Translations under genes and position numbers: made by a program
Source: a virus
IMG/VR virus record: IMGVR_UViG_3300045988_066923
Coordinates: 1-37,845 of that record
DNA: 37,845 bases
Reading direction: 5' to 3' (one strand)
Shown here: one piece after another, positions 173 to 37,845 of the stretch
Numbering within the stretch: position 1 is the stretch's first letter
How the letters are laid out: each line of letters starts with the position of its first letter
Notes under the pieces: generated by a model
What the model saw: the letters and a program-made list of their open reading frames with translations, nothing else
Databases searched by the model: none
Told to the model about the DNA's origin: nothing

Positions 173-193
173 TGCTAATGGATTTGCTAATGG
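173..193. repeat. Tandem TGCTAATGG x2 (173-181, 185-193; 12-bp phasing); candidate integrase arm-type sites
   Basis: Exact 9-bp direct repeat in the AT-rich arm between the att core and the int stop codon. A GCTAAC pair with the same 12-bp phasing sits in the other arm (37726-37743). Confidence 0.35.
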
Positions 194-1275
194 GTTTCGC
201 CCTCTGGCTGCGGGGCAAACAGGCTGCGCATACGACGCAGATCATCCGTCTCGTCGGCCTCTGCGATGTGCGTGTAGATCTTGTGCATGGTCTGATTGTC
301 GGCCCAGCCGCCCCAGGCCATACACTGTAACTCGCTGACGCCGGCATGGTGGCAGAGGGATGCGAAGGAGTGCCGCAGGCCGTGGATAGAGATATCCGTC
401 ACACCGGCCTCGATGCAGTCCATGTGCAGGTGCTTTTGCAGATACGACGGATTGATTCCGGCTGCCGTCTCGCCGGTCAGATCTTCGGCCAACTCCCGGA
501 CGCGGTCGATCATGATCGGGATATTCCGCTGGCTGCTTTCGTTTTTGTTTTCGTCCTTTCGGGTCCAGCCATCTGACCCCATGACGACTGCACCGGATAC
601 GCGAATCAGCCCGTGCTGCAGGTCAATGTCCTGCGGGCGCACGGCGAAGATCTCCGAACTGCGCAGCGAGTGCAGACCCAGCAGGATCGCCAGTTCCTCC
701 GGGCGGCCCTTGATGGTTTGCAGCAGCGGCGGTATTTCATTGTACCGCAGGAACGGCGTAGGCTTTTTGATGATCTGCGGGATCTTGATCTCCGGGACAG
801 TCAGCTTTGCGTACCGCAGCGAGGCCGCAACGAGCCCCCATGCGTTCTTGACGGTCTTTGCGGTGACGTGCTGCAACTCCTCGTCAATGACTTCCTGCCA
901 GTCCTTTACCTGCTGCGGCTTCTGCTCCATAAGCCCGGCAAAGCGGTCTTTCCGGTATCGCTTGTATCCGAGGATCGTCGACGGCGAGGTTTTGGCCGGG
1001 CGCGCCGCAATGTAAGCGTCCACCAACTGGCCGACAGTCATGTCGGATTTCGACTTGACCTGCCGGCCGGCCAGATACGCCGCTTTTGCTTCGATTGCGG
1101 CCAGCGTACATTCGCGGGCCGAAGCGCGCGTGATCGGGATGCTTTCCCCGCCGAGGCGGAGCTGGACGAAGTAGCTGCCGGATTTCAGCTTGCGGGGCTT
1201 TGGTGTTTTCAAGCGGGCCACACCTCCATATGCGACGTAAAGGCTGCGCGGATCCAGCCGACATTCGGATTGCAC
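187..1275 (-). CDS. int: Tyrosine recombinase / phage integrase
   Basis: C-terminal catalytic signature: LRSSE (Arg), HGLRHSFAS (H-x-x-R), GGWAD, KIYTH (Tyr). Adjacent to the att core. The start is uncertain: the ATG at 1275 overlaps the upstream gene, and a TTG near 1209 has a GGAGG upstream. Confidence 0.93.
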   Translation of the reverse strand: MQSECRLDPRSLYVAYGGVARLKTPKPRKLKSGSYFVQLRLGGESIPITRASARECTLAAIEAKAAYLAGRQVKSKSDMTVGQLVDAYIAARPAKTSPSTILGYKRYRKDRFAGLMEQKPQQVKDWQEVIDEELQHVTAKTVKNAWGLVAASLRYAKLTVPEIKIPQIIKKPTPFLRYNEIPPLLQTIKGRPEELAILLGLHSLRSSEIFAVRPQDIDLQHGLIRVSGAVVMGSDGWTRKDENKNESSQRNIPIMIDRVRELAEDLTGETAAGINPSYLQKHLHMDCIEAGVTDISIHGLRHSFASLCHHAGVSELQCMAWGGWADNQTMHKIYTHIAEADETDDLRRMRSLFAPQPEGETH

Positions 1276-4082: not shown

Positions 4083-4517
4083 ATGCAGCAGAATATTTAC
4101 CGGGCGGCAAGGATCTCCCGCGGACTGACGCAGGAAGCCGCCGCAGCAAAGATCCCGATCAACGTGCGCAGCCTGCGCGAATACGAATCCGGCGAGCGTG
4201 TGCCCAATTCTGACACCGTCGTCCGTATGTCGGAGATCTACGATGCGCAGTATCTGTGTTATCAGCACCTGCGGCAGACCAGTGAGATCGCGCAGCGTCT
4301 GATCCCGGACACCGGTGATCTGGCTCTGCCAGAAGCGGTTTTGCAGCTGCTGGACGCGGTCTATGCGTTCGCAGACAACAAGACGGACCGGCGCTTGATC
4401 GCAATCGCCAGAGACGGCGTGATCGATGAGCAGGAGCGGCCGGAGTATGACCGGATCGTGGAGGAGCTGCAGGACATTATCAAGTACGCAATGGCTGTCA
4501 CATACCGCCAGCGTTAA
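4083..4517 (+). CDS. XRE-family HTH regulator with a C-terminal helical domain
   Basis: ATG at 4083 after GGAGG. HTH reads ISRGLTQEAAAAKIPINVRSLREYESGERVP. Confidence 0.8.
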   Translation: MQQNIYRAARISRGLTQEAAAAKIPINVRSLREYESGERVPNSDTVVRMSEIYDAQYLCYQHLRQTSEIAQRLIPDTGDLALPEAVLQLLDAVYAFADNKTDRRLIAIARDGVIDEQERPEYDRIVEELQDIIKYAMAVTYRQR

Positions 4518-32252: not shown

Positions 32253-32561
32253 ATGGACTACACACAAATCATCTCGGCAGTGATCGCGCTCATCAGCGCG
32301 CTCGTTTCGGCATTTCTGATCCCGTGGCTCAAAACCAAGATCGACGCGGATAAGCTGCAAACGATCCGCACTTACGTCGAGATCGGCGTCAAGGCGGCGG
32401 AGCAGCTGTACACCGCGACGGACGGCGCGGCGAAAAAGGCGTATGTTGTGAACTTCCTCGCCGAGAAGGGCATTCAATTTGATGTGGAAACGATCGACAA
32501 GCTGATCGAGGCCGCCGTGCTGCAGCTGCATCACGAGTTGTACGGGAGTGAGCGGGCATGA
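32253..32561 (+). CDS. Holin, LL-H family-like
   Basis: N-terminal TM IISAVIALISALVSAFLIPWL, then VEIGVKAAEQL...GAAKKAYVVNFLAEKGI...LIEAAVLQL. Immediately upstream of the endolysin. Confidence 0.8.
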   Translation: MDYTQIISAVIALISALVSAFLIPWLKTKIDADKLQTIRTYVEIGVKAAEQLYTATDGAAKKAYVVNFLAEKGIQFDVETIDKLIEAAVLQLHHELYGSERA

Positions 32562-33268
32562 GCATCAAAATCGGACAGGCCAGCCTTGGAGAAACCGGAG
32601 GACGCAACCAGCAGCCCGGCAACCAGACCGGGCGGGAGCTGAATCTCTCCAGCTGGTACAATGGCCGCTGGCTCGGCATCTTGCGCTACAAGAGCCGCAA
32701 AAAGGCCGAGCGGGCCGCGCAGACGTGCGAGGCGGCCATTAAGAACCCGAGCATCGGCTACGACATGGACGGCCGGAACACGGCATACGAGGCCGCCAGA
32801 GCCGTCAGGTGGGACGTGAGCAGGATCGCAAAGCCTGTGGAGACGGACTGCTCCGCGCTCATGATGCTCTGCGCCGTGGCCGCAGGCTGCGAGGCCGTCG
32901 CCGCGCTCTACAAAAAGCAGGGCAACAGCTGCACGACATACTGCATGCTGCACGATTGGCCTGCAACGGGAGACTTCGAGCTGCTGACTGGCAGCAAGTA
33001 TCTGACGACGGACGCCAATCTCCTGCGCGGCGACGTACTGGTAAGCTCGGGCCATACCGTGATGGCCCTCGAAGATGGAAAAAATGCAGAGGAGGAAACC
33101 GAAATGGTAGAAAAGAGCAAGATCATCGTGGACGGCAAGGAAGTCGCCGTCGAGCGGATCCTGAAAAACGGTACGAACTACGTCAAGGTGCGCGATCTGG
33201 CCGCCGCACTGGATCTCGAAGTCAGCAACAAGGGCAATATCGCCGTGCTGACGCACAAAGAAAAGTAA
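32558..33268 (+). CDS. Endolysin: Cys/His peptidase-type catalytic domain plus a C-terminal copper-amine-oxidase-N-like wall-binding domain
   Basis: Candidate catalytic Cys (VETDCSALMM) and His (VSSGHTVMAL). C-terminus IIVDGKEVAVERILKNGTNYVKVRDLAAALDLEV. Confidence 0.85.
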   Translation: MSIKIGQASLGETGGRNQQPGNQTGRELNLSSWYNGRWLGILRYKSRKKAERAAQTCEAAIKNPSIGYDMDGRNTAYEAARAVRWDVSRIAKPVETDCSALMMLCAVAAGCEAVAALYKKQGNSCTTYCMLHDWPATGDFELLTGSKYLTTDANLLRGDVLVSSGHTVMALEDGKNAEEETEMVEKSKIIVDGKEVAVERILKNGTNYVKVRDLAAALDLEVSNKGNIAVLTHKEK

Positions 33269-33388
33269 GCCCCCGCCAGGCGGCGGGCCGAAGGGAGTGA
33301 CGAAAGCATAACTGCGCGGCTGGCTCTGCCGAAGGAGCTGGAATACCTCACGCGCAGCGACTGGGAGCGCGTCGCTGACGAGGGCTTA

Positions 33389-33541
33389 TTGGATGAAATC
33401 GATCAGAAGATCGTGAATCTTTATATCGTGCGCAGGCTCCCGCAGATGGACGCTGCCGGTGAAATCGGCATCGACCGCAAAACCATCTCCCGCCGCCTGC
33501 CGCACATCTACAACACCGCCCGTCGCCTGACAGGAGCATAA
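33389..33541 (+). CDS. Sigma-70 region-4-like small HTH ORF (start uncertain)
   Basis: Core IDQKIVNLYIVRRLPQMDAAGEIGIDRKTISRRL. TTG 33389 follows GAGGG. The frame is open back to 33269 with no ATG or GTG; ATA 33308 sits 10 nt after GAAGGGAG. Confidence 0.35.
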   Translation: MDEIDQKIVNLYIVRRLPQMDAAGEIGIDRKTISRRLPHIYNTARRLTGA

Positions 33542-33547
33542 CGAAGG

Positions 33548-33581
33548 AGCACCCCGAGCATCACGCTCGGGGTGCTTTTTT
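33548..33581 (+). terminator. Rho-independent terminator of the late operon, shared with the convergent minus-strand cassette
   Basis: 12-bp stem AGCACCCCGAGC / GCTCGGGGTGCT, loop ATCAC, then T6. An A-run lies on the other side. Confidence 0.9.
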
Positions 33582-33590
33582 GCTTAGCGG

Positions 33591-33782
33591 TTATTCGGAA
33601 GGTTCATTTTTCTGCATATACGCGTCAATCCACCCACGTATCAAAGCACTGGGCGTTGTGCCATTTGCTTTTGCGGCAGACTTAAAATCATCGGCAAGGT
33701 CGCGCCGCATCTTGCAGCTTACCAGCGTCATGTTTGTGGCGTCCCACTTGTCGCGGGCGCGCTTTTGGGCCTCACTCGGCAT
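33591..33782 (-). CDS. Ribbon-helix-helix (CopG/Arc-like) DNA-binding protein, 63 aa
   Basis: Trimmed to the ATG at 33782, 6 nt after GGGAGG. MPSEAQKRARDKWDATNMTLVSCKMRRDLADDFKSAAKANGTTPSALIRGWIDAYM has a beta-strand/helix/helix layout. Last gene of the cassette. Confidence 0.7.
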   Translation of the reverse strand: MPSEAQKRARDKWDATNMTLVSCKMRRDLADDFKSAAKANGTTPSALIRGWIDAYMQKNEPSE

Positions 33783-34011
33783 CGGCGACCTCCCAATTTG
33801 CGCGGCTACGCAGGATGTCAATCTCAAAAACATCCGCGTGTGCAGGAATCGACTCAAATTCCTGCGTGAGAAGGTTGAAGGCGTTTCCTCCATCATTCCA
33901 GCCCTCCGCCCCAACGGGCAGATAGAGCTGACTATCATCCGGCCCATTGAGCGTGAAAAGGCCGTCATGCTTCAACGCGCCGCGGACTGTCCATTCTCCA
34001 GCGTATTTCAT
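33772..34011 (-). CDS. Small strongly acidic protein, unknown function
   Basis: GGGGAGG SD. 14 D/E against 5 K/R in 79 aa. Overlaps the RHH gene by 11 nt. Confidence 0.65.
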   Translation of the reverse strand: MKYAGEWTVRGALKHDGLFTLNGPDDSQLYLPVGAEGWNDGGNAFNLLTQEFESIPAHADVFEIDILRSRANWEVADAE

Positions 34012-34032
34012 CTAGAAAAACCTCCCCTGTTC

Positions 34033-34338
34033 TCATCGCCACATGGCGACGCACTTCGCAAGCATACGTCCGCTTGCGCTGCGGATGCTCACCGTTCCCT
34101 TAATTGCGTCGCCGTCCAAGCGCTCCGCAGTTTCGATGTAAACTTTCGTGATAGTTTCATCTTGCGTGAACAGGAAGCCGTCACCGTCCTCGGTTTCAGC
34201 TACGCGAATAAAATCCGGCAGTTCAATTTCTGCGTGAAGCCACGATCCGGGATAATTCTCCTTCTGGGTGGCTTTGATGAAAATCTTATCCGGGATATTC
34301 CTAAAATCAGAACGGATGCGGTAAAGATGTGCAGTCAT
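34033..34338 (-). CDS. Small protein, unknown function
   Basis: GAGGAGGA SD; 101 aa. Confidence 0.65.
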   Translation of the reverse strand: MTAHLYRIRSDFRNIPDKIFIKATQKENYPGSWLHAEIELPDFIRVAETEDGDGFLFTQDETITKVYIETAERLDGDAIKGTVSIRSASGRMLAKCVAMWR

Positions 34339-34341
34339 TTT

Positions 34342-34695
34342 TTATTCCTCCTCTAAATCTGCTTGCAGCTTGTCGAACCATGCTTCTGTTTCCGCCCGGC
34401 AGTGGGCTGCGTACTCTTCGTATGTTTCGAAATCCCCGATAATGTATCGGATATTGGTAAGTCTATAGATTTCGAATGTGTGGATATCCGCGAAGCGTTC
34501 CGCAATCTTATGCCCTTGCAGGTTCTTGCCGTAAGGTTCGTCTCCTACTGGAGCCATAACCTTCGCCAGAATTTCCGTTTGTTCCTCATACCATGCGTTG
34601 CGTTCCTCCTGCGTCTCAAACCGCATCGGTTCCTGCGCGCGACCGGCGGCGCTTCCGGCCTTCATGATTCTGGTGATTTCCTCTACGTTTTCCAT
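34342..34695 (-). CDS. Acidic protein, unknown function
   Basis: Trimmed to the ATG at 34695 after AAGGAGGA. 117 aa, Glu-rich, with a C-terminal DLEEE. Confidence 0.65.
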   Translation of the reverse strand: MENVEEITRIMKAGSAAGRAQEPMRFETQEERNAWYEEQTEILAKVMAPVGDEPYGKNLQGHKIAERFADIHTFEIYRLTNIRYIIGDFETYEEYAAHCRAETEAWFDKLQADLEEE

Positions 34696-34711
34696 TGTTG
34701 TTTCCTCCTTC

Positions 34712-35266
34712 TCAGCCCAACGCGTCAATGAGCTTCGACGCGTTGGACTCCGTTACGATCAGCTCAAGCTTTTTTACAACATCGACGATTGTAATCTTGG
34801 AAGTGCGGGCTACGATTGCCGGGCGGTTTTTCGTGAACCATGCTTCGACGGACAGGCCCTCCGATTCCGCCCGCTTCTCTGCTGCGGCGTGCCATTCTTC
34901 ACTCATGTTTTCGAGCCGGACTTTATCTTCCACCGCGAAGAATCTGGCGAGCTTTACGTGGCAGCCCGCAAGATCACGAGAGATGAATTCGTCGCGCAGG
35001 GCCTCTGCATAGGAAATCTGCTTTTCGGAAACGCCGGTGATCTTGGGAAGCGGATGCTCGGTGCCGAACTCGGCGGCAATGTATGCGTCTAGTTTAGCCT
35101 TTGCTTCTGCTTTTTTCGCTGCGGCGTAGCAGGACGGGCAGACAGTAACGTGTTCCGCCGCCCACTCTTCGTAGGAAGCAGCGGCGCTGCTATTGGCGCA
35201 AGTGCGGACGTGCTCGAACGTGCCCCCACAGATTTCGCATTTGCAAGTAATCTTCGCCTTTGCCAT
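34712..35266 (-). CDS. Zinc-ribbon protein, unknown function
   Basis: GGAGGG SD. N-terminus CKCEIC...17 aa...C...CPSC. Central LPKITGVSEKQISYAEALRDEF. First gene of the cassette. Confidence 0.7.
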   Translation of the reverse strand: MAKAKITCKCEICGGTFEHVRTCANSSAAASYEEWAAEHVTVCPSCYAAAKKAEAKAKLDAYIAAEFGTEHPLPKITGVSEKQISYAEALRDEFISRDLAGCHVKLARFFAVEDKVRLENMSEEWHAAAEKRAESEGLSVEAWFTKNRPAIVARTSKITIVDVVKKLELIVTESNASKLIDALG

Positions 35267-35311
35267 TGTCGTTGCCCTCCATAATTTGTTTTTGTTTTAT
35301 CTTATGGCTTT

Positions 35312-35340
35312 ATTATATACCGTAATACCGTATATGTCAA
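35312..35340 (-). promoter_or_regulatory. Consensus sigma-70 promoter TTGACA - 17 nt - TATAAT (minus strand) with the tandem repeat TACGGTA-T-TACGGTA in the spacer
   Basis: -35 at 35335-35340 and -10 at 35312-35317. The spacer at 35318-35334 reads TATACGGTATTACGGTA on the minus strand. Confidence 0.8.
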
Positions 35341-35388
35341 GCACTTTTCAAAAAAATTTTTAAAAAGTATCGAGAATGACAGGTGGTA

Positions 35389-35426
35389 CACAAATGCCCC
35401 GGAAGTGTCCCACAAATGTCCCCCGG
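35389..35426 (+). repeat. Direct repeat CACAAATG(C/T)CCCC(C)GG x2 with 22-bp phasing, upstream of the plus-strand cassette
   Basis: Copies at 35389-35402 and 35411-35426. The second runs into the hairpin CCCCGG-CGAAA-CCGGGG (35421-35437). Confidence 0.5.
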
Positions 35427-35473
35427 CGAAACCGGGGAGCTACTAAAATGGTATCAGAAAGGGGCGATACCGC

Positions 35474-35974
35474 ATGGCATACAACCCGTATACGGGCCGT
35501 TGGGAAATGGATCCCGCACAGCAGATCCAGATGCAGCCCATGCCGCGGCCGCAGATGCCGCAAATGCCGCAGCAGCCGCCGAAGCTCGGCGTTCTGACCG
35601 TGGCCAGCGAAGCCAGCATCAACAATCTGCAGATGCAGCCGAACGACAACGCGCTTGCGCTGCATGAGACAGAGAATCTGCTGTACTACATCCGCACCGA
35701 CAGCATGGCAGCAAAGACCATTGCACGGTTCCGGATCTTCCCGGAGCCGACGGAAGAGGAAAAGGCGGCGAACCAGCTGCAGGAGCAGCTGAGGCAGATC
35801 ACAGACGGCCTGCAGAGCATGGCCGGAAAAATTGAGGAAATGGAGGGAAAACTCAATGCAAAATCCGATTATGGCCCTGATGGGCGGAAACGGCGGGGGA
35901 AGCAAACTGCTGAACGGCCTGCTGCAGACGGCGAAGACGACGCTGCAGGGGCAAAGCCCGCAGATGGTGCTTAG
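35474..35974 (+). CDS. Gln/Pro/Met-rich N-terminus protein, unknown function
   Basis: MAYNPYTGRWEMDPAQQIQMQPMPRPQMPQMPQQPP..., then a globular segment and a coiled-coil-like segment. The last ~40 codons overlap the next gene. Confidence 0.6.
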   Translation: MAYNPYTGRWEMDPAQQIQMQPMPRPQMPQMPQQPPKLGVLTVASEASINNLQMQPNDNALALHETENLLYYIRTDSMAAKTIARFRIFPEPTEEEKAANQLQEQLRQITDGLQSMAGKIEEMEGKLNAKSDYGPDGRKRRGKQTAERPAADGEDDAAGAKPADGA

Positions 35975-36065
35975 TTTCCTGGCTTCGCAGCCCGGCTTTG
36001 AGGCGTGGTTCGAGGTGAACAAAAACAAGACGGTCGGCGAGCTCGTCGGCCAGATCGGCAAGTGA
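35856..36065 (+). CDS. Small protein (69 aa), unknown function
   Basis: ATG at 35856, 8 nt after GGAGGG. MQNPIMALMGGNGGGSKLLNGLLQ... Confidence 0.5.
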   Translation: MQNPIMALMGGNGGGSKLLNGLLQTAKTTLQGQSPQMVLSFLASQPGFEAWFEVNKNKTVGELVGQIGK

Positions 36066-36119
36066 TACCGCGCGCAAGCGCCTATCAAAATTCATTCCAC
36101 CCAGAAAGGAGGGAAAACC

Positions 36120-36686
36120 ATGGATAAGGATTATGGCTTCGGCGGATGGGGCATTGTCATCCTGATCGCGCTGTTCTTCCTGCTCTTCGCGGGCAGAGGC
36201 TTCGGCGGAAACGGCAGCGGCGAGAGCGCACCGGCTACGCAGGCCGACGTGCAGCGCGCGACGGACTTTGCGGCCCTTGAACGCCAGAACAACGAGGGTG
36301 TCGCGGCAACGCGCCAGGGCGCGTATGACGTCACCAGCGCCGTCAAGGACAACGCCTACAACATCCTCGGCGAGCTGCGCGATCTGCAGTCAGTCACGGA
36401 GGCGGGCTTCTCCAGCCAGCAGAAATGCTGCTGCGAGATCCTGCGTGCGATCGACGGCGTTAACTACAACGCCAGCATCAACGCATGCGAGATCAAGACG
36501 GCGATCCACACCGAGGGCGAGGCGACCCGGACGCTCCTGCAGCAGCAGGAGAACCAGCGTCTGCGCGATGAGCTTGCACAGAGCAGAGCCGCGAACAACG
36601 ACTATATGCAGTCGCAGTACATCCTCGGCCAGCTGGGACGGTACTACCAGAACCCGCCCTGCAATCCGTGCGGCTGCGGCGGCTGA
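36120..36686 (+). CDS. Gly-rich N-terminal TM protein with a CCC motif and a C-terminal CNPCGCGG
   Basis: AAAGGAGGG SD. N-terminus GFGGWGIVILIALFFLLFAGRGFGGNGSG, mid-protein QQKCCCEIL, and C-terminus YYQNPPCNPCGCGG. Confidence 0.7.
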   Translation: MDKDYGFGGWGIVILIALFFLLFAGRGFGGNGSGESAPATQADVQRATDFAALERQNNEGVAATRQGAYDVTSAVKDNAYNILGELRDLQSVTEAGFSSQQKCCCEILRAIDGVNYNASINACEIKTAIHTEGEATRTLLQQQENQRLRDELAQSRAANNDYMQSQYILGQLGRYYQNPPCNPCGCGG

Positions 36687-36761
36687 CACGGGTACACCCT
36701 GATATAGCTATCCGGGGCATAATGCCCCTTGAAATAAAGCCAAAAGAAAGGAGCTTTAAAA

Positions 36762-37220
36762 ATGGCTTGCAATAGCGGAAATGGAAACCGGGCGTATCAG
36801 AAATCCTGCGTCCGATATTTTAATAACTCGCCCCAGCTGCTCGCGGCTGACAGCGCAAACGTGCTGACTCTGGCCGGGGCAAAGGTCGTCAACTCCGGAT
36901 CGTCCATCCAGGTCGAGCCGCAGAGCTATGATACGGTCAAGATCGGCCTGTACCATCTGGCCGCGGACGCGGTCATCGCGGCGACGGCCGCGGGCGTCCT
37001 GACCCTGCAGTGGTACATGGACGGCGTCGCACTGCCCTGCACACTCAAACGGATCACACTGCCGGCCTCTGGCAATGCGGAAATCCACACGGAGACGGAC
37101 TTGGAACTCTCCGGGTGCTGCTGCTGCGTCAACCACACATTCACGCTCGTGGCGACAACCGACAGCACGGCGGCAGGCTCCGTGATCGAGCTCTGCACGG
37201 GCCTGCTGAAACTCGCGTGA
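36762..37220 (+). CDS. BclA-C-terminal-like (TNF/C1q-type jelly-roll) protein with a CCCC run
   Basis: AAAGGAG SD. Beta-rich pattern GLYHLAADAVIAATAAGVLTLQWYMDGVALP...FTLVATT...LLKLA resembles BclA_C-type domains. Contains SGCCCCVNH. Confidence 0.6.
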   Translation: MACNSGNGNRAYQKSCVRYFNNSPQLLAADSANVLTLAGAKVVNSGSSIQVEPQSYDTVKIGLYHLAADAVIAATAAGVLTLQWYMDGVALPCTLKRITLPASGNAEIHTETDLELSGCCCCVNHTFTLVATTDSTAAGSVIELCTGLLKLA

Positions 37221-37229
37221 GGTGCTGAC

Positions 37230-37718
37230 ATGGATGAGATTGCAGCGTACAAGAGCAAGCTGCACGAAGCGCTCAAAAAGGAGATGGCCGCGCCCATCTC
37301 CTGCAGAAGCGTCAGTAACTGCACAATGCTGATGGACGCGATCTGCGCAGCTGACAAGCTGAGCGATAAGCCGAGCACTTACGCACAACACTTCGATCGC
37401 GAAGAGGCCATGCAGTGGGCGGACAGGATGCAGAACGCAGACGGATCGACCGGCCCGCATTGGACGATGGAGCAGACAACGGCCATTGCGGACAGCATGG
37501 GCATCCAAGAGCATGAAATCCCGCACTGGGCGTGGGGCGTGACCATGAACATGATGTACTCGGATTACTACCCCGTCGCGGTAGAATTCGGCCTCAACCG
37601 CCCGGAATTCTACGCAGCCCTCGCCAAAGCGTTTTTGCTCGACAAAGACGGCCCCGGCCCGGAGCGGAAGCTGATGGAGTATTATGAGCATATTGCAAAG
37701 CGCAGTGTCCAATCCTGA
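37230..37718 (+). CDS. Conserved-looking protein of unknown function (HWTMEQT ... NMMYSDYY motifs)
   Basis: GAGGTG SD. Last gene before the right att repeat. Confidence 0.7.
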   Translation: MDEIAAYKSKLHEALKKEMAAPISCRSVSNCTMLMDAICAADKLSDKPSTYAQHFDREEAMQWADRMQNADGSTGPHWTMEQTTAIADSMGIQEHEIPHWAWGVTMNMMYSDYYPVAVEFGLNRPEFYAALAKAFLLDKDGPGPERKLMEYYEHIAKRSVQS

Positions 37719-37790: not shown

Positions 37791-37845
37791 GGGTTCGATT
37801 CCCCTCAGCTCCACCATGTAAAACCAAAACCCGCAGTTGATAAAA
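37791..37845. repeat. Right copy of the 55-bp terminal direct repeat (att core / attR)
   Basis: Exact identity to 1-55. The bases just upstream (..acagt) give a T-C mismatch in the would-be T-stem, so tRNA identity starts at the repeat edge. The window ends here, so the repeat could be longer. Confidence 0.9.

Follow-up and report, generated by a model that had tools for sequence, protein, structure and literature searches.

What does a temperate phage use a compact operon of five small genes for, when this operon has a perfect consensus promoter of its own? The question is raised by the minus strand of positions 33591-35340 in the virus record IMGVR_UViG_3300045988_066923, the whole of which (37,845 nucleotides (nt), hereafter referred to as the window) was analysed here. 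The window represents a complete temperate phage genome of about 37.8 kb, circularly assembled, as judged from a 55-nt direct overlap of its ends (1-55 and 37791-37845). In a preliminary description, made from the sequence alone, the cassette had been regarded either as an operon that resembles those encoding anti-CRISPR (Acr) proteins and an anti-CRISPR-associated (Aca) regulator, with a ribbon-helix-helix (RHH) protein as the terminal autoregulator, or as a toxin-antitoxin-like module. Our analysis supports the former. Judging from sequence comparisons, we put at roughly 0.7 the probability that the cassette serves anti-defence in the manner of acr-aca operons, because in related phages the same promoter and RHH gene accompany a homologue of AcrIC5 and genes of the AcrVA2 family, and because an orphan copy of the RHH gene adjoins a bacterial CRISPR array. 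This is support by guilt-by-association, of the same degree as that on which Aca families and candidate Acrs are usually proposed.

According to the list of open reading frames (ORFs) in the window, the cassette comprises five tightly packed, co-oriented genes, all on the minus strand. G1 (35266..34712) codes for 184 amino acids (aa), with a predicted N-terminal four-cysteine Zn-binding hairpin and a helical domain, and is followed by G2 (34695..34342, 117 aa, acidic) and G3 (34338..34033, 101 aa, predicted to be all-β); these three are candidate anti-defence cargo. G4 (34011..33772, 79 aa, acidic) is an optional cargo gene, and G5 (33782..33591) codes for a 63-aa RHH protein with a basic N-terminal arm, a putative Aca-like autorepressor. 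The number, orientation and lengths of the ORFs and the 11-nt overlap between G4 and G5 agree with the preliminary description, as does the presence of a GGAGG-type Shine-Dalgarno sequence 5' of every ORF, which was verified by reading the sequence. The region had also been thought to be more AT-rich than the backbone, which is indeed the case: its G+C (GC) content is 0.524 vs 0.581 elsewhere, and no other 1.8-kb stretch of the genome has a lower value, the distance from the mean being about 2.5 standard deviations. Since the ratio of nonsynonymous to synonymous substitution rates (dN/dS) in comparison with relatives is 0.03-0.35 over G1-G5, with the synonymous divergence (dS) reaching 0.87, all five are, by this measure, real genes under purifying selection. 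No transmembrane segments were found in their products.

The evidence that carries the acr-aca reading comes from the relatives of this phage. In cassettes of one type (L212), the first gene codes for a 66-aa protein that matches the Pfam family AcrIC5 (PF22147) over its full length (E-value 6.7e-25, 87.4 bits vs a cut-off of 27), as well as the solved AcrIC5 chain 7yhr in the PDB (E=6.6e-9). AcrIC5 is an experimentally validated inhibitor of type I-C systems that has orthologues in Firmicutes and is active against a system of gut Eggerthella (PMC7913775). In two other relatives, proteins of 347 aa (L067) and 345 aa (L058) exhibit a precomputed AcrVA2-like domain (PF26125), and the former aligns with the AcrVA2 chain 7ci1 (E=1.4e-7) across the RPHxRRGHWH segment. 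It has been reported that the function of AcrVA2 needs His and Arg residues of this C-terminal segment, and that the family is widespread on mobile elements, FinQ included (bioRxiv 10.1101/2022.11.29.518452). RHH proteins that are 60-78% identical to G5 are encoded next to AcrIC5 and AcrVA2 homologues in relatives, and their genes are found with the same promoter. Of the features by which an acr-aca operon is recognized, the gene for a small DNA-binding regulator is present in the window itself, in the form of the predicted G5, and the presence of the regulator family beside validated Acr families is found in the relatives, not in the window.

The promoter of the cassette (35312..35340, minus strand) consists of TTGACA (35340-35335) and TATAAT (35317-35312) separated by 17 nt and scores 12/12 against the sigma-70 consensus, in line with the earlier reading. 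It is the only promoter-like site in a scan of positions 32500-36500, and by our arithmetic a perfect consensus promoter is expected only about 0.01 times per window by chance. Its spacer is filled by the tandem repeat TACGGTA-T-TACGGTA (35318..35332, minus strand), which had been noticed before and which occurs once in the genome. We regard it as a putative operator of the RHH protein, comprising two tandem 7-bp palindromes TAC-N-GTA (35332-35326 and 35324-35318) with a one-base linker, i.e. in an 8-bp register. Among 24 distinct haplotypes, the 29-nt promoter core exhibits only four variable columns and a mean minor-allele fraction of 0.006, while the flanks of the same haplotypes vary far more (0.39 in the 40 nt upstream and 0.25 in the 45 nt downstream). 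The same core was found in 79 promoters from 80 further IMG/VR loci, in which departures from the exact -35 and -10 hexamers are very rare. The spacer reads TACGGTA-T-TACGGTA in 37 of them, TACGGTA-T-TACAGTA in 32 and TACGGTA-A-TACCGTA in three, and there are singletons with A or C as the linker. Variation of the operator across relatives is almost confined to the centre of the heptad (G/A/C) and to the linker base (T/A/C), and the TAC and GTA arms are invariant in the 79 promoters, with one exception. This pattern is as expected if a symmetric dimer reads each TAC-N-GTA palindrome, and the conservation suggests that G5 would be the protein that binds the heptads.

Homologues of G1 that are accompanied by helix-turn-helix (HTH) regulators or by a distant RHH protein have equally strong promoters with other palindromes, namely CGCCCA-A-TGGGCG, CCACC-N5-GGTGG and a 25-bp palindrome over the -35 hexamer; the palindromes differ where the regulator differs, and therefore the regulator and the operator change together. 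When IMG/VR was scanned with the 17-mer of the operator, five additional matches were obtained, all of them chance occurrences inside coding sequences of unrelated phages, and a metagenome scan with the 29-mer returned the same architectures again and no new cargo. Between the promoter and G1 there is an A-rich 5' leader (35267..35311, minus strand), which contains the conserved element CATAAGATAAA (35306-35296) and the GGAGGG Shine-Dalgarno sequence of G1. The CATAAGATAAA element, located just 3' of the -10 hexamer, is conserved in the RHH-regulated cassettes, and its close variants are seen in an HTH-regulated cassette (GTAAGATAAA, L059, around position 4395), in the insertion of gene X described below (L018, around 4630) and beside a host orphan RHH gene (L117, around 3852). 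The element CATAAGATAA also occurs both in cassettes with HTH regulators and beside the host orphan RHH gene. CATAAGATAAA could be a start-site or an RNA-level regulatory element.

The regulatory sequences and the RHH gene travel together, with exchanged cargo between them. With respect to the lysis genes the cassette can face either way: it is convergent with them in some relatives, as in the window, and co-oriented in most. Homology between the two arrangements extends from 12-20 nt 5' of the -35 hexamer to a few nt past the stop codon of G5, and the sequences upstream are unrelated; an A/T-rich, UP-element-like tract 5' of the -35 hexamer (35341..35365, minus strand) marks the left boundary of the mobile module. 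The 29-nt core is nearly invariant while adjacent genes reach dS of 0.6-0.87. The RHH profile retrieved 80 loci from IMG/VR, of which 27 have a single 128-aa gene between the promoter and the RHH gene, and 24 have G1, G2 and G3; the complete set of G1 to G4, i.e. the architecture of the window, is present in 10. Six loci carry a 77-aa gene, a G1-like gene of 255 aa and an AcrVA2-like gene of 260 aa before the RHH gene, four have a 66-aa gene (X66) inserted between G1 and G2 of the G1-G2-G3 set, and in another four the AcrIC5 homologue precedes the RHH gene, which is followed by genes of 177 aa and 123 aa. Five further architectures are represented by one locus each, including one in which only G3 and G4 precede the RHH gene and a two-promoter locus. 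Three more cargo sets were found in ENA and Logan contigs: a 91-aa gene and the 347-aa AcrVA2-like gene before the RHH gene, followed by a second identical promoter with genes of 122 aa and 101 aa (L067); a 97-aa gene and a gene for a 211-aa multi-zinc-ribbon protein before the RHH gene; and a 65-aa gene before the RHH gene, with the 177-aa and 123-aa genes after it. The start of the RHH gene overlaps three unrelated upstream genes, G4, the AcrVA2-like gene and the 128-aa cargo gene, by an identical 11 nt.

The inserted gene X (L018:4600-4957; also L019, L037, L038 and L051) codes for a very acidic protein of 66 aa with a net charge of -14, and the insertion brings along ATGGGCGTATAAT and a leader, i.e. 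half of a promoter like that of L059. Because it carries half of a different promoter, it suggests that cargo is shuffled by recombination at promoters and leaders. The 255-aa protein (L190:1938-2705) combines the N-terminal four-Cys domain of G1 with a different C-terminal domain; its gene lies directly 5' of the 260-aa AcrVA2-like gene, the product of which lacks the C-terminal RPHxRRGHWH segment. In co-oriented relatives, the RHH gene is followed, with no obvious terminator between them, by a gene for a 130-aa protein (L024:7762-8154; phrog_3754, E=1.6e-29), which may be read through from the cassette promoter. On comparison of all these loci, the promoter, the operator and the RHH gene make up a portable regulatory unit, in which recombination swaps the cargo among related gut Oscillospiraceae phages.

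Apart from G1, the cargo of the present phage had been described as devoid of recognizable motifs, and indeed none of G1-G4 has a significant match in Pfam, PHROGs, PADLOC or NCBIfam. Searches of PDB sequences and profiles likewise gave nothing for G1-G3 and a single discounted match for G4. The G1 family comprises 24 clusters with identity down to 34% and is characterized by four invariant cysteines, C10, C13, C43 and C46, in a hairpin-helix ahead of a helical domain, and by the invariant motifs ITGVSEKQ..YA..LR and ESNASK(L/I)ID. Its earlier designation as a Zn-ribbon protein stands in so far as the four cysteines fit Zn binding, but the match to a Pfam zinc ribbon is not significant (E=0.37). 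The AlphaFold2 model of G1 is confident (predicted local distance difference test score (pLDDT) of 92.6) and its dN/dS is about 0.16. Foldseek searches of the PDB and BFVD with this model gave no informative match, only uncharacterised gut-phage proteins being similar; a resemblance of the hairpin to the Zn-binding conserved region 3 of human papillomavirus E7 was dropped, as the Foldseek match was not significant. AcrVA2-like genes are immediate neighbours of G1 homologues twice independently, in L058 and in the L190 type. Among GenBank phages, G1 has just one weak N-terminal match, in a lemur-gut virus, and the GTDB representative genomes contain a single homologue, in Yeguia hominis.

G2 has a net charge of -13, an isoelectric point of 4.6, dN/dS of about 0.1-0.2 and only 13 clusters, and no match to it was found in Pfam, PHROG, PADLOC, NCBIfam or the PDB. 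G3, with dN/dS of about 0.1, is represented by 21 clusters in an exhaustive search; its all-β model has a pLDDT of 85.8, and Foldseek found no fold match in the PDB. It accompanies G1 in four diverged lineages and occurs with G1 homologues in L053, L059 and L070; it is found without G1 in L080, and G1 without it in L056 and L058. G4, present in about a quarter of the relatives, has a net charge of -9 (14 D/E vs 5 K/R, as counted earlier) and a dN/dS of about 0.3. Its sole match, to a tetratricopeptide-repeat-like PDB entry, was discounted as weak and repeat-inflated. Like G2 and G4, many cargo proteins of the relatives are strongly acidic. On the strength of their position in the unit, G1-G4 are strong candidates for new inhibitors of bacterial immunity.

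The assignment of G5 as an RHH protein, proposed at the outset, holds at modest significance: it matches the Pfam family RHH_10 (PF23807) with E=6e-4 and 20.4 bits, i.e. under the gathering threshold of 27 bits, and PHROG repressor families with E=1e-4, and its best matches among PDB profiles, though weak, are all RHH domains (PutA, AvtR and CopG). These scores support the RHH fold, and membership in the RHH_10 family specifically is not established by them. The gene has evolved under stringent constraint (dN/dS 0.03-0.09). To our knowledge, Aca14 of Pasteurella is the only RHH Aca described. BLASTP gave no alignment between it and G5, and hhalign brought 46 columns into register at 15% identity with a probability of 20%; the Aca14 query is approximate, being translated from gBlock PF10050 of the supplement to the respective paper, in which one base has apparently been lost. 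Because it is not a detectable homologue of Aca14, G5 would represent a further RHH Aca family.

A homologue of G5 has been found also outside phages. An orphan RHH gene, the product of which is 78% identical to G5, is present in 24 bacterial contigs, directly after cas5-cas6e-cas1-cas2(DnaQ) and a type I-E array with 29-nt repeats and 32-nt spacers (L117:2767-3900, also L118-L120). Within the array trailer it is flanked by the last full repeat and by a degenerate terminal one. Its direction is that of the array, and 3' of it there is a decayed version of the cassette promoter together with the CATAAGATAA leader. Two strains share an identical insertion of this gene and have entirely different spacers (7 and 9). 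One array spacer matches relatives of the phage at 29/32 positions, with a chance expectation that we estimate at about 3e-7; a second apparent match was discounted because of 7 mismatches. The matching spacer (L119:923-954) corresponds to a PcfJ-like gene of sister phages (L001:657-688, L003:1012-1043, L097:1914-1945), and the 5' flank of the protospacer is AAC, which is not the protospacer-adjacent motif of E. coli type I-E. None of the spacers in the L117 and L119 arrays matches the window; the targets are relatives with a different replication module. In Lactobacillus delbrueckii, a host homologue of the N-terminal domain (NTD) of AcrIIA1 always adjoins CRISPR-Cas and has been proposed to act as an 'anti-anti-CRISPR' (bioRxiv 10.1101/787200), and by analogy we hypothesize such a role for the orphan RHH protein.

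According to the acr-aca reading, the consensus promoter would be recognized by the host machinery and would fire once the phage DNA enters the cell, so that the four small soluble proteins G1-G4 would be made and would neutralise host immunity. By association, the likeliest target would be type I CRISPR-Cas, with G1 and G3 as the conserved core and G2 and G4 as accessory proteins. As the conservation of the operator suggests, G5 would bind as two dimers to the two TAC-N-GTA palindromes in the 17-bp spacer, which would shut the operon once enough product has accumulated and keep its expression low in the lysogen. Several considerations weigh against this reading. The AcrIC5 and AcrVA2 homologues occur in sister phages; neither family is present in the window and G1-G4 exhibit no similarity to either. 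Since FinQ is among the relatives of AcrVA2, and since these are usually found where Cas12a is lacking, the family is a sign of conflict among mobile elements, and not of anti-CRISPR activity specifically. In Pfam, PHROGs, NCBIfam and the PDB sequences, G1-G4 have no counterpart among known anti-defence families, the models of G1 and G3 have no fold match in the PDB either, and the function proposed for these four genes is drawn from association only. The RHH membership of G5 is statistically weak, given the Pfam score under the gathering threshold, and the co-occurrence of G1 and G3 across lineages would fit another kind of two-component system as well. A more elaborate scenario can be put forward only tentatively, and taken as a whole it is doubtful: G5 might found a new RHH Aca family of human-gut Clostridia phages, G1 and G3 might form a new two-component inhibitor of type I CRISPR-Cas, and a host might have captured the regulator into the trailer of its type I-E array, where it would be co-transcribed with the pre-crRNA and silence an incoming acr promoter as an 'anti-anti-CRISPR'.

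The same observations have to be weighed under other explanations. The cassette could be a prophage module of defence, superinfection exclusion or inter-element competition, in which G1-G4 would block other phages or plasmids in the lysogen and the RHH protein would only autoregulate; its place among presumed accessory genes between the lysis genes and attP, the host-type promoter of its own, the two-gene-like co-occurrence of G1 and G3, and the kinship of AcrVA2 with the plasmid fertility inhibitor FinQ (bioRxiv 10.1101/2022.11.29.518452) all speak for it. We consider it unlikely, as the best PADLOC match is not significant (E=0.01, 12.9 bits) and neither transmembrane segments nor enzymatic domains were found in the cassette proteins; the same regulator and promoter serve a homologue of AcrIC5, which is a validated inhibitor of host CRISPR, and an orphan regulator beside a CRISPR array fits a host response to counter-defence better. 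The idea that the cassette consists of ordinary morons of unrelated host-fitness function, which merely share a strong regulated promoter, agrees with the lack of an assignable function for G1-G4 and with the GC content below that of the backbone; it leaves unexplained, however, both the repeated association with two anti-CRISPR families and the orphan regulator gene at the array, and it appears very improbable to us.

Two further alternatives build on the RHH protein itself. In P22, the Pant-arc-ant segment of immI lies outside the early region and pairs a strong promoter with an RHH autorepressor, and a similar module could be envisaged here, with G1 (predicted to be a Zn-binding helical protein) or G3 as an antirepressor in the lysis-lysogeny decision of this prophage or of others. 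Pfam detects no ANT, AntA, KilAC or Bro domain in G1-G4, however, and a core switch would tolerate neither eleven cargo architectures nor the loss of G1 and G2 (as in L080). In sister phages, AcrIC5 and AcrVA2 homologues are among the cargo, and this explanation appears quite improbable to us. The toxin-antitoxin pair mentioned in the preliminary description, with G4 as the toxin and G5 as the antitoxin in reverse order, draws on the 11-nt overlap of the two genes and on the RHH fold, which is common to many antitoxins. We reject it as scarcely tenable, because G4 is missing from most relatives (about 65 of the 80 loci that keep G5) while the RHH gene is retained. At least five different genes occur upstream of the RHH gene, and the same 11-nt overlap joins it to the AcrVA2-like and 128-aa cargo genes; besides, G4 is acidic and matches no toxin family, and G5 is conserved with the promoter operator, not with G4.

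The genomic setting of the candidate acr-aca operon is as follows. The cassette belongs to the moron zone that extends from the lysis genes to the phage attachment site (attP). On one side, a holin gene (32253-32561) is followed by a gene for an ELLD endolysin (32558-33268) and then by a small HTH gene (33281-33541, plus strand). The window copy of the latter matches HTH_28 with E=0.002, and its relatives give a faint match to sigma-70 region 4; in phages with the opposite orientation of the cassette it is replaced by a version that is 42-50% identical. A 13-bp GC-rich hairpin (33548-33576) is common to the cassette and to the convergent lysis/HTH operon. As its T-run is confined to the plus strand, it is, from its sequence, mainly the terminator of the late operon, and it lies outside the mobile module. 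On the other side, a cluster of four genes (35474-37718, plus strand) separates the cassette from attP, hence the cassette does not lie at the right end, as had been thought. Its supposed position next to the attachment site is true only roughly, since the distance is about 2.4 kb with four genes in between, and its orientation antiparallel to the neighbours holds in the window but is not a conserved property, as most relatives have it co-oriented with the lysis genes.

The four-gene cluster codes for proteins of 166 aa (Q/P-rich), 188 aa (N-terminal membrane segment, C-terminus rich in Cys), 152 aa and 162 aa (DUF7841). All relatives retain the cluster, though in a diverged form where the arrangement is the other one, and it may serve in lysogenic conversion. 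Upstream of it, in the divergent intergenic region, CACAAATG occurs twice, at 35389-35396 and 35411-35418, 22 nt apart, out of three copies genome-wide with both strands counted. Similar GGCATTTGTGT repeats are present at the equivalent position in L064 and L067, and all these repeats may be sites of another regulator. The 55-nt overlap of the genome ends, which has the DUF7841 gene on one side and the integrase gene (187-1275, minus strand) on the other, begins with GGGTTCGATTCCCCTCAGCTCCACCA, which resembles the 3' end of a tRNA and is probably the attP core. The phage is common in human-gut metagenomes, and it is absent from the GenBank phage collection, in which no DNA match to the cassette was found. 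Its relatives are associated with Oscillospiraceae: a metagenome-assembled genome named Oscillospiraceae bacterium contains a G1 homologue, and Yeguia hominis, mentioned above, another.

Few counter-defence genes, anti-CRISPR genes included, have been identified in human-gut phages of Firmicutes, because searches for Acas have relied on HTH regulators of Proteobacteria. The promoter-operator-RHH unit is an easily searched sequence tag. It marks about 18 families of cargo genes in about 100 phage contigs, of which two are known anti-CRISPR families and the others are candidates, including two proteins, G1 and G3, with confident models that have no fold match in the PDB. The unit would provide a second, independent RHH Aca family, and the orphan repressor gene in the CRISPR array points to a possible counter-measure of the host.

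The putative operator and its regulator can be compared with several known systems. Dimers of the RHH protein MetJ bind to adjacent short palindromic boxes with an 8-bp repeat (the met-box), and the operator of Arc overlaps the strong phage promoter Pant; the likeness of the putative G5 operator to MetJ/met-box and Arc/Mnt lies in the layout, and its stoichiometry is only what we infer. The acr locus of Listeria prophages (AcrIIA1-NTD, Osuna et al.) is similar in that a strong promoter has a palindrome, there bound by AcrIIA1, between the -35 and -10 hexamers (bioRxiv 10.1101/787200), in the variable small cargo and the regulator encoded within the operon, in its occurrence in temperate phages of Firmicutes, and in the presence of orphan copies of the regulator beside CRISPR-Cas loci of the host. 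In Listeria, however, the HTH domain is fused to an Acr, whereas the RHH protein described here is free-standing, the cargo families are unrelated, the operator here comprises two tandem 7-bp palindromes, and the orphan copy resides inside the trailer of a type I-E array, unlike in the Listeria system.

Aca14, the RHH Aca of Pasteurella multocida, represses its own and a neighbouring operon (bioRxiv 10.64898/2026.07.27.740549). Like the putative regulator G5, it is an RHH protein encoded in the place of an aca gene, and an N-terminal extension precedes its RHH core; the repeated promoter sites through which it controls the two operons may be compared with the two promoters in L067 and L217. 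Its inverted repeat overlaps the -10 hexamer, whereas the site described here fills the spacer, and it comes from Proteobacteria, whereas the present cassette comes from phages of gut Clostridia. The classical acr-aca1 and acr-aca2 operons of Pseudomonas and Pectobacterium phages, likewise discovered by guilt-by-association, share with the proposed organization of the cassette a strong early promoter, small unrelated genes and a terminal autorepressor; their regulators are of the HTH type and they belong to Proteobacteria, whereas here the regulator is of the RHH type and the cargo is a set of candidates. A connection to known inhibitors is provided by AcrIC5 (PF22147, 7yhr) and AcrVA2 (PF26125, 7ci1), homologues of which are carried as cargo by the same promoter-RHH unit in sister phages.

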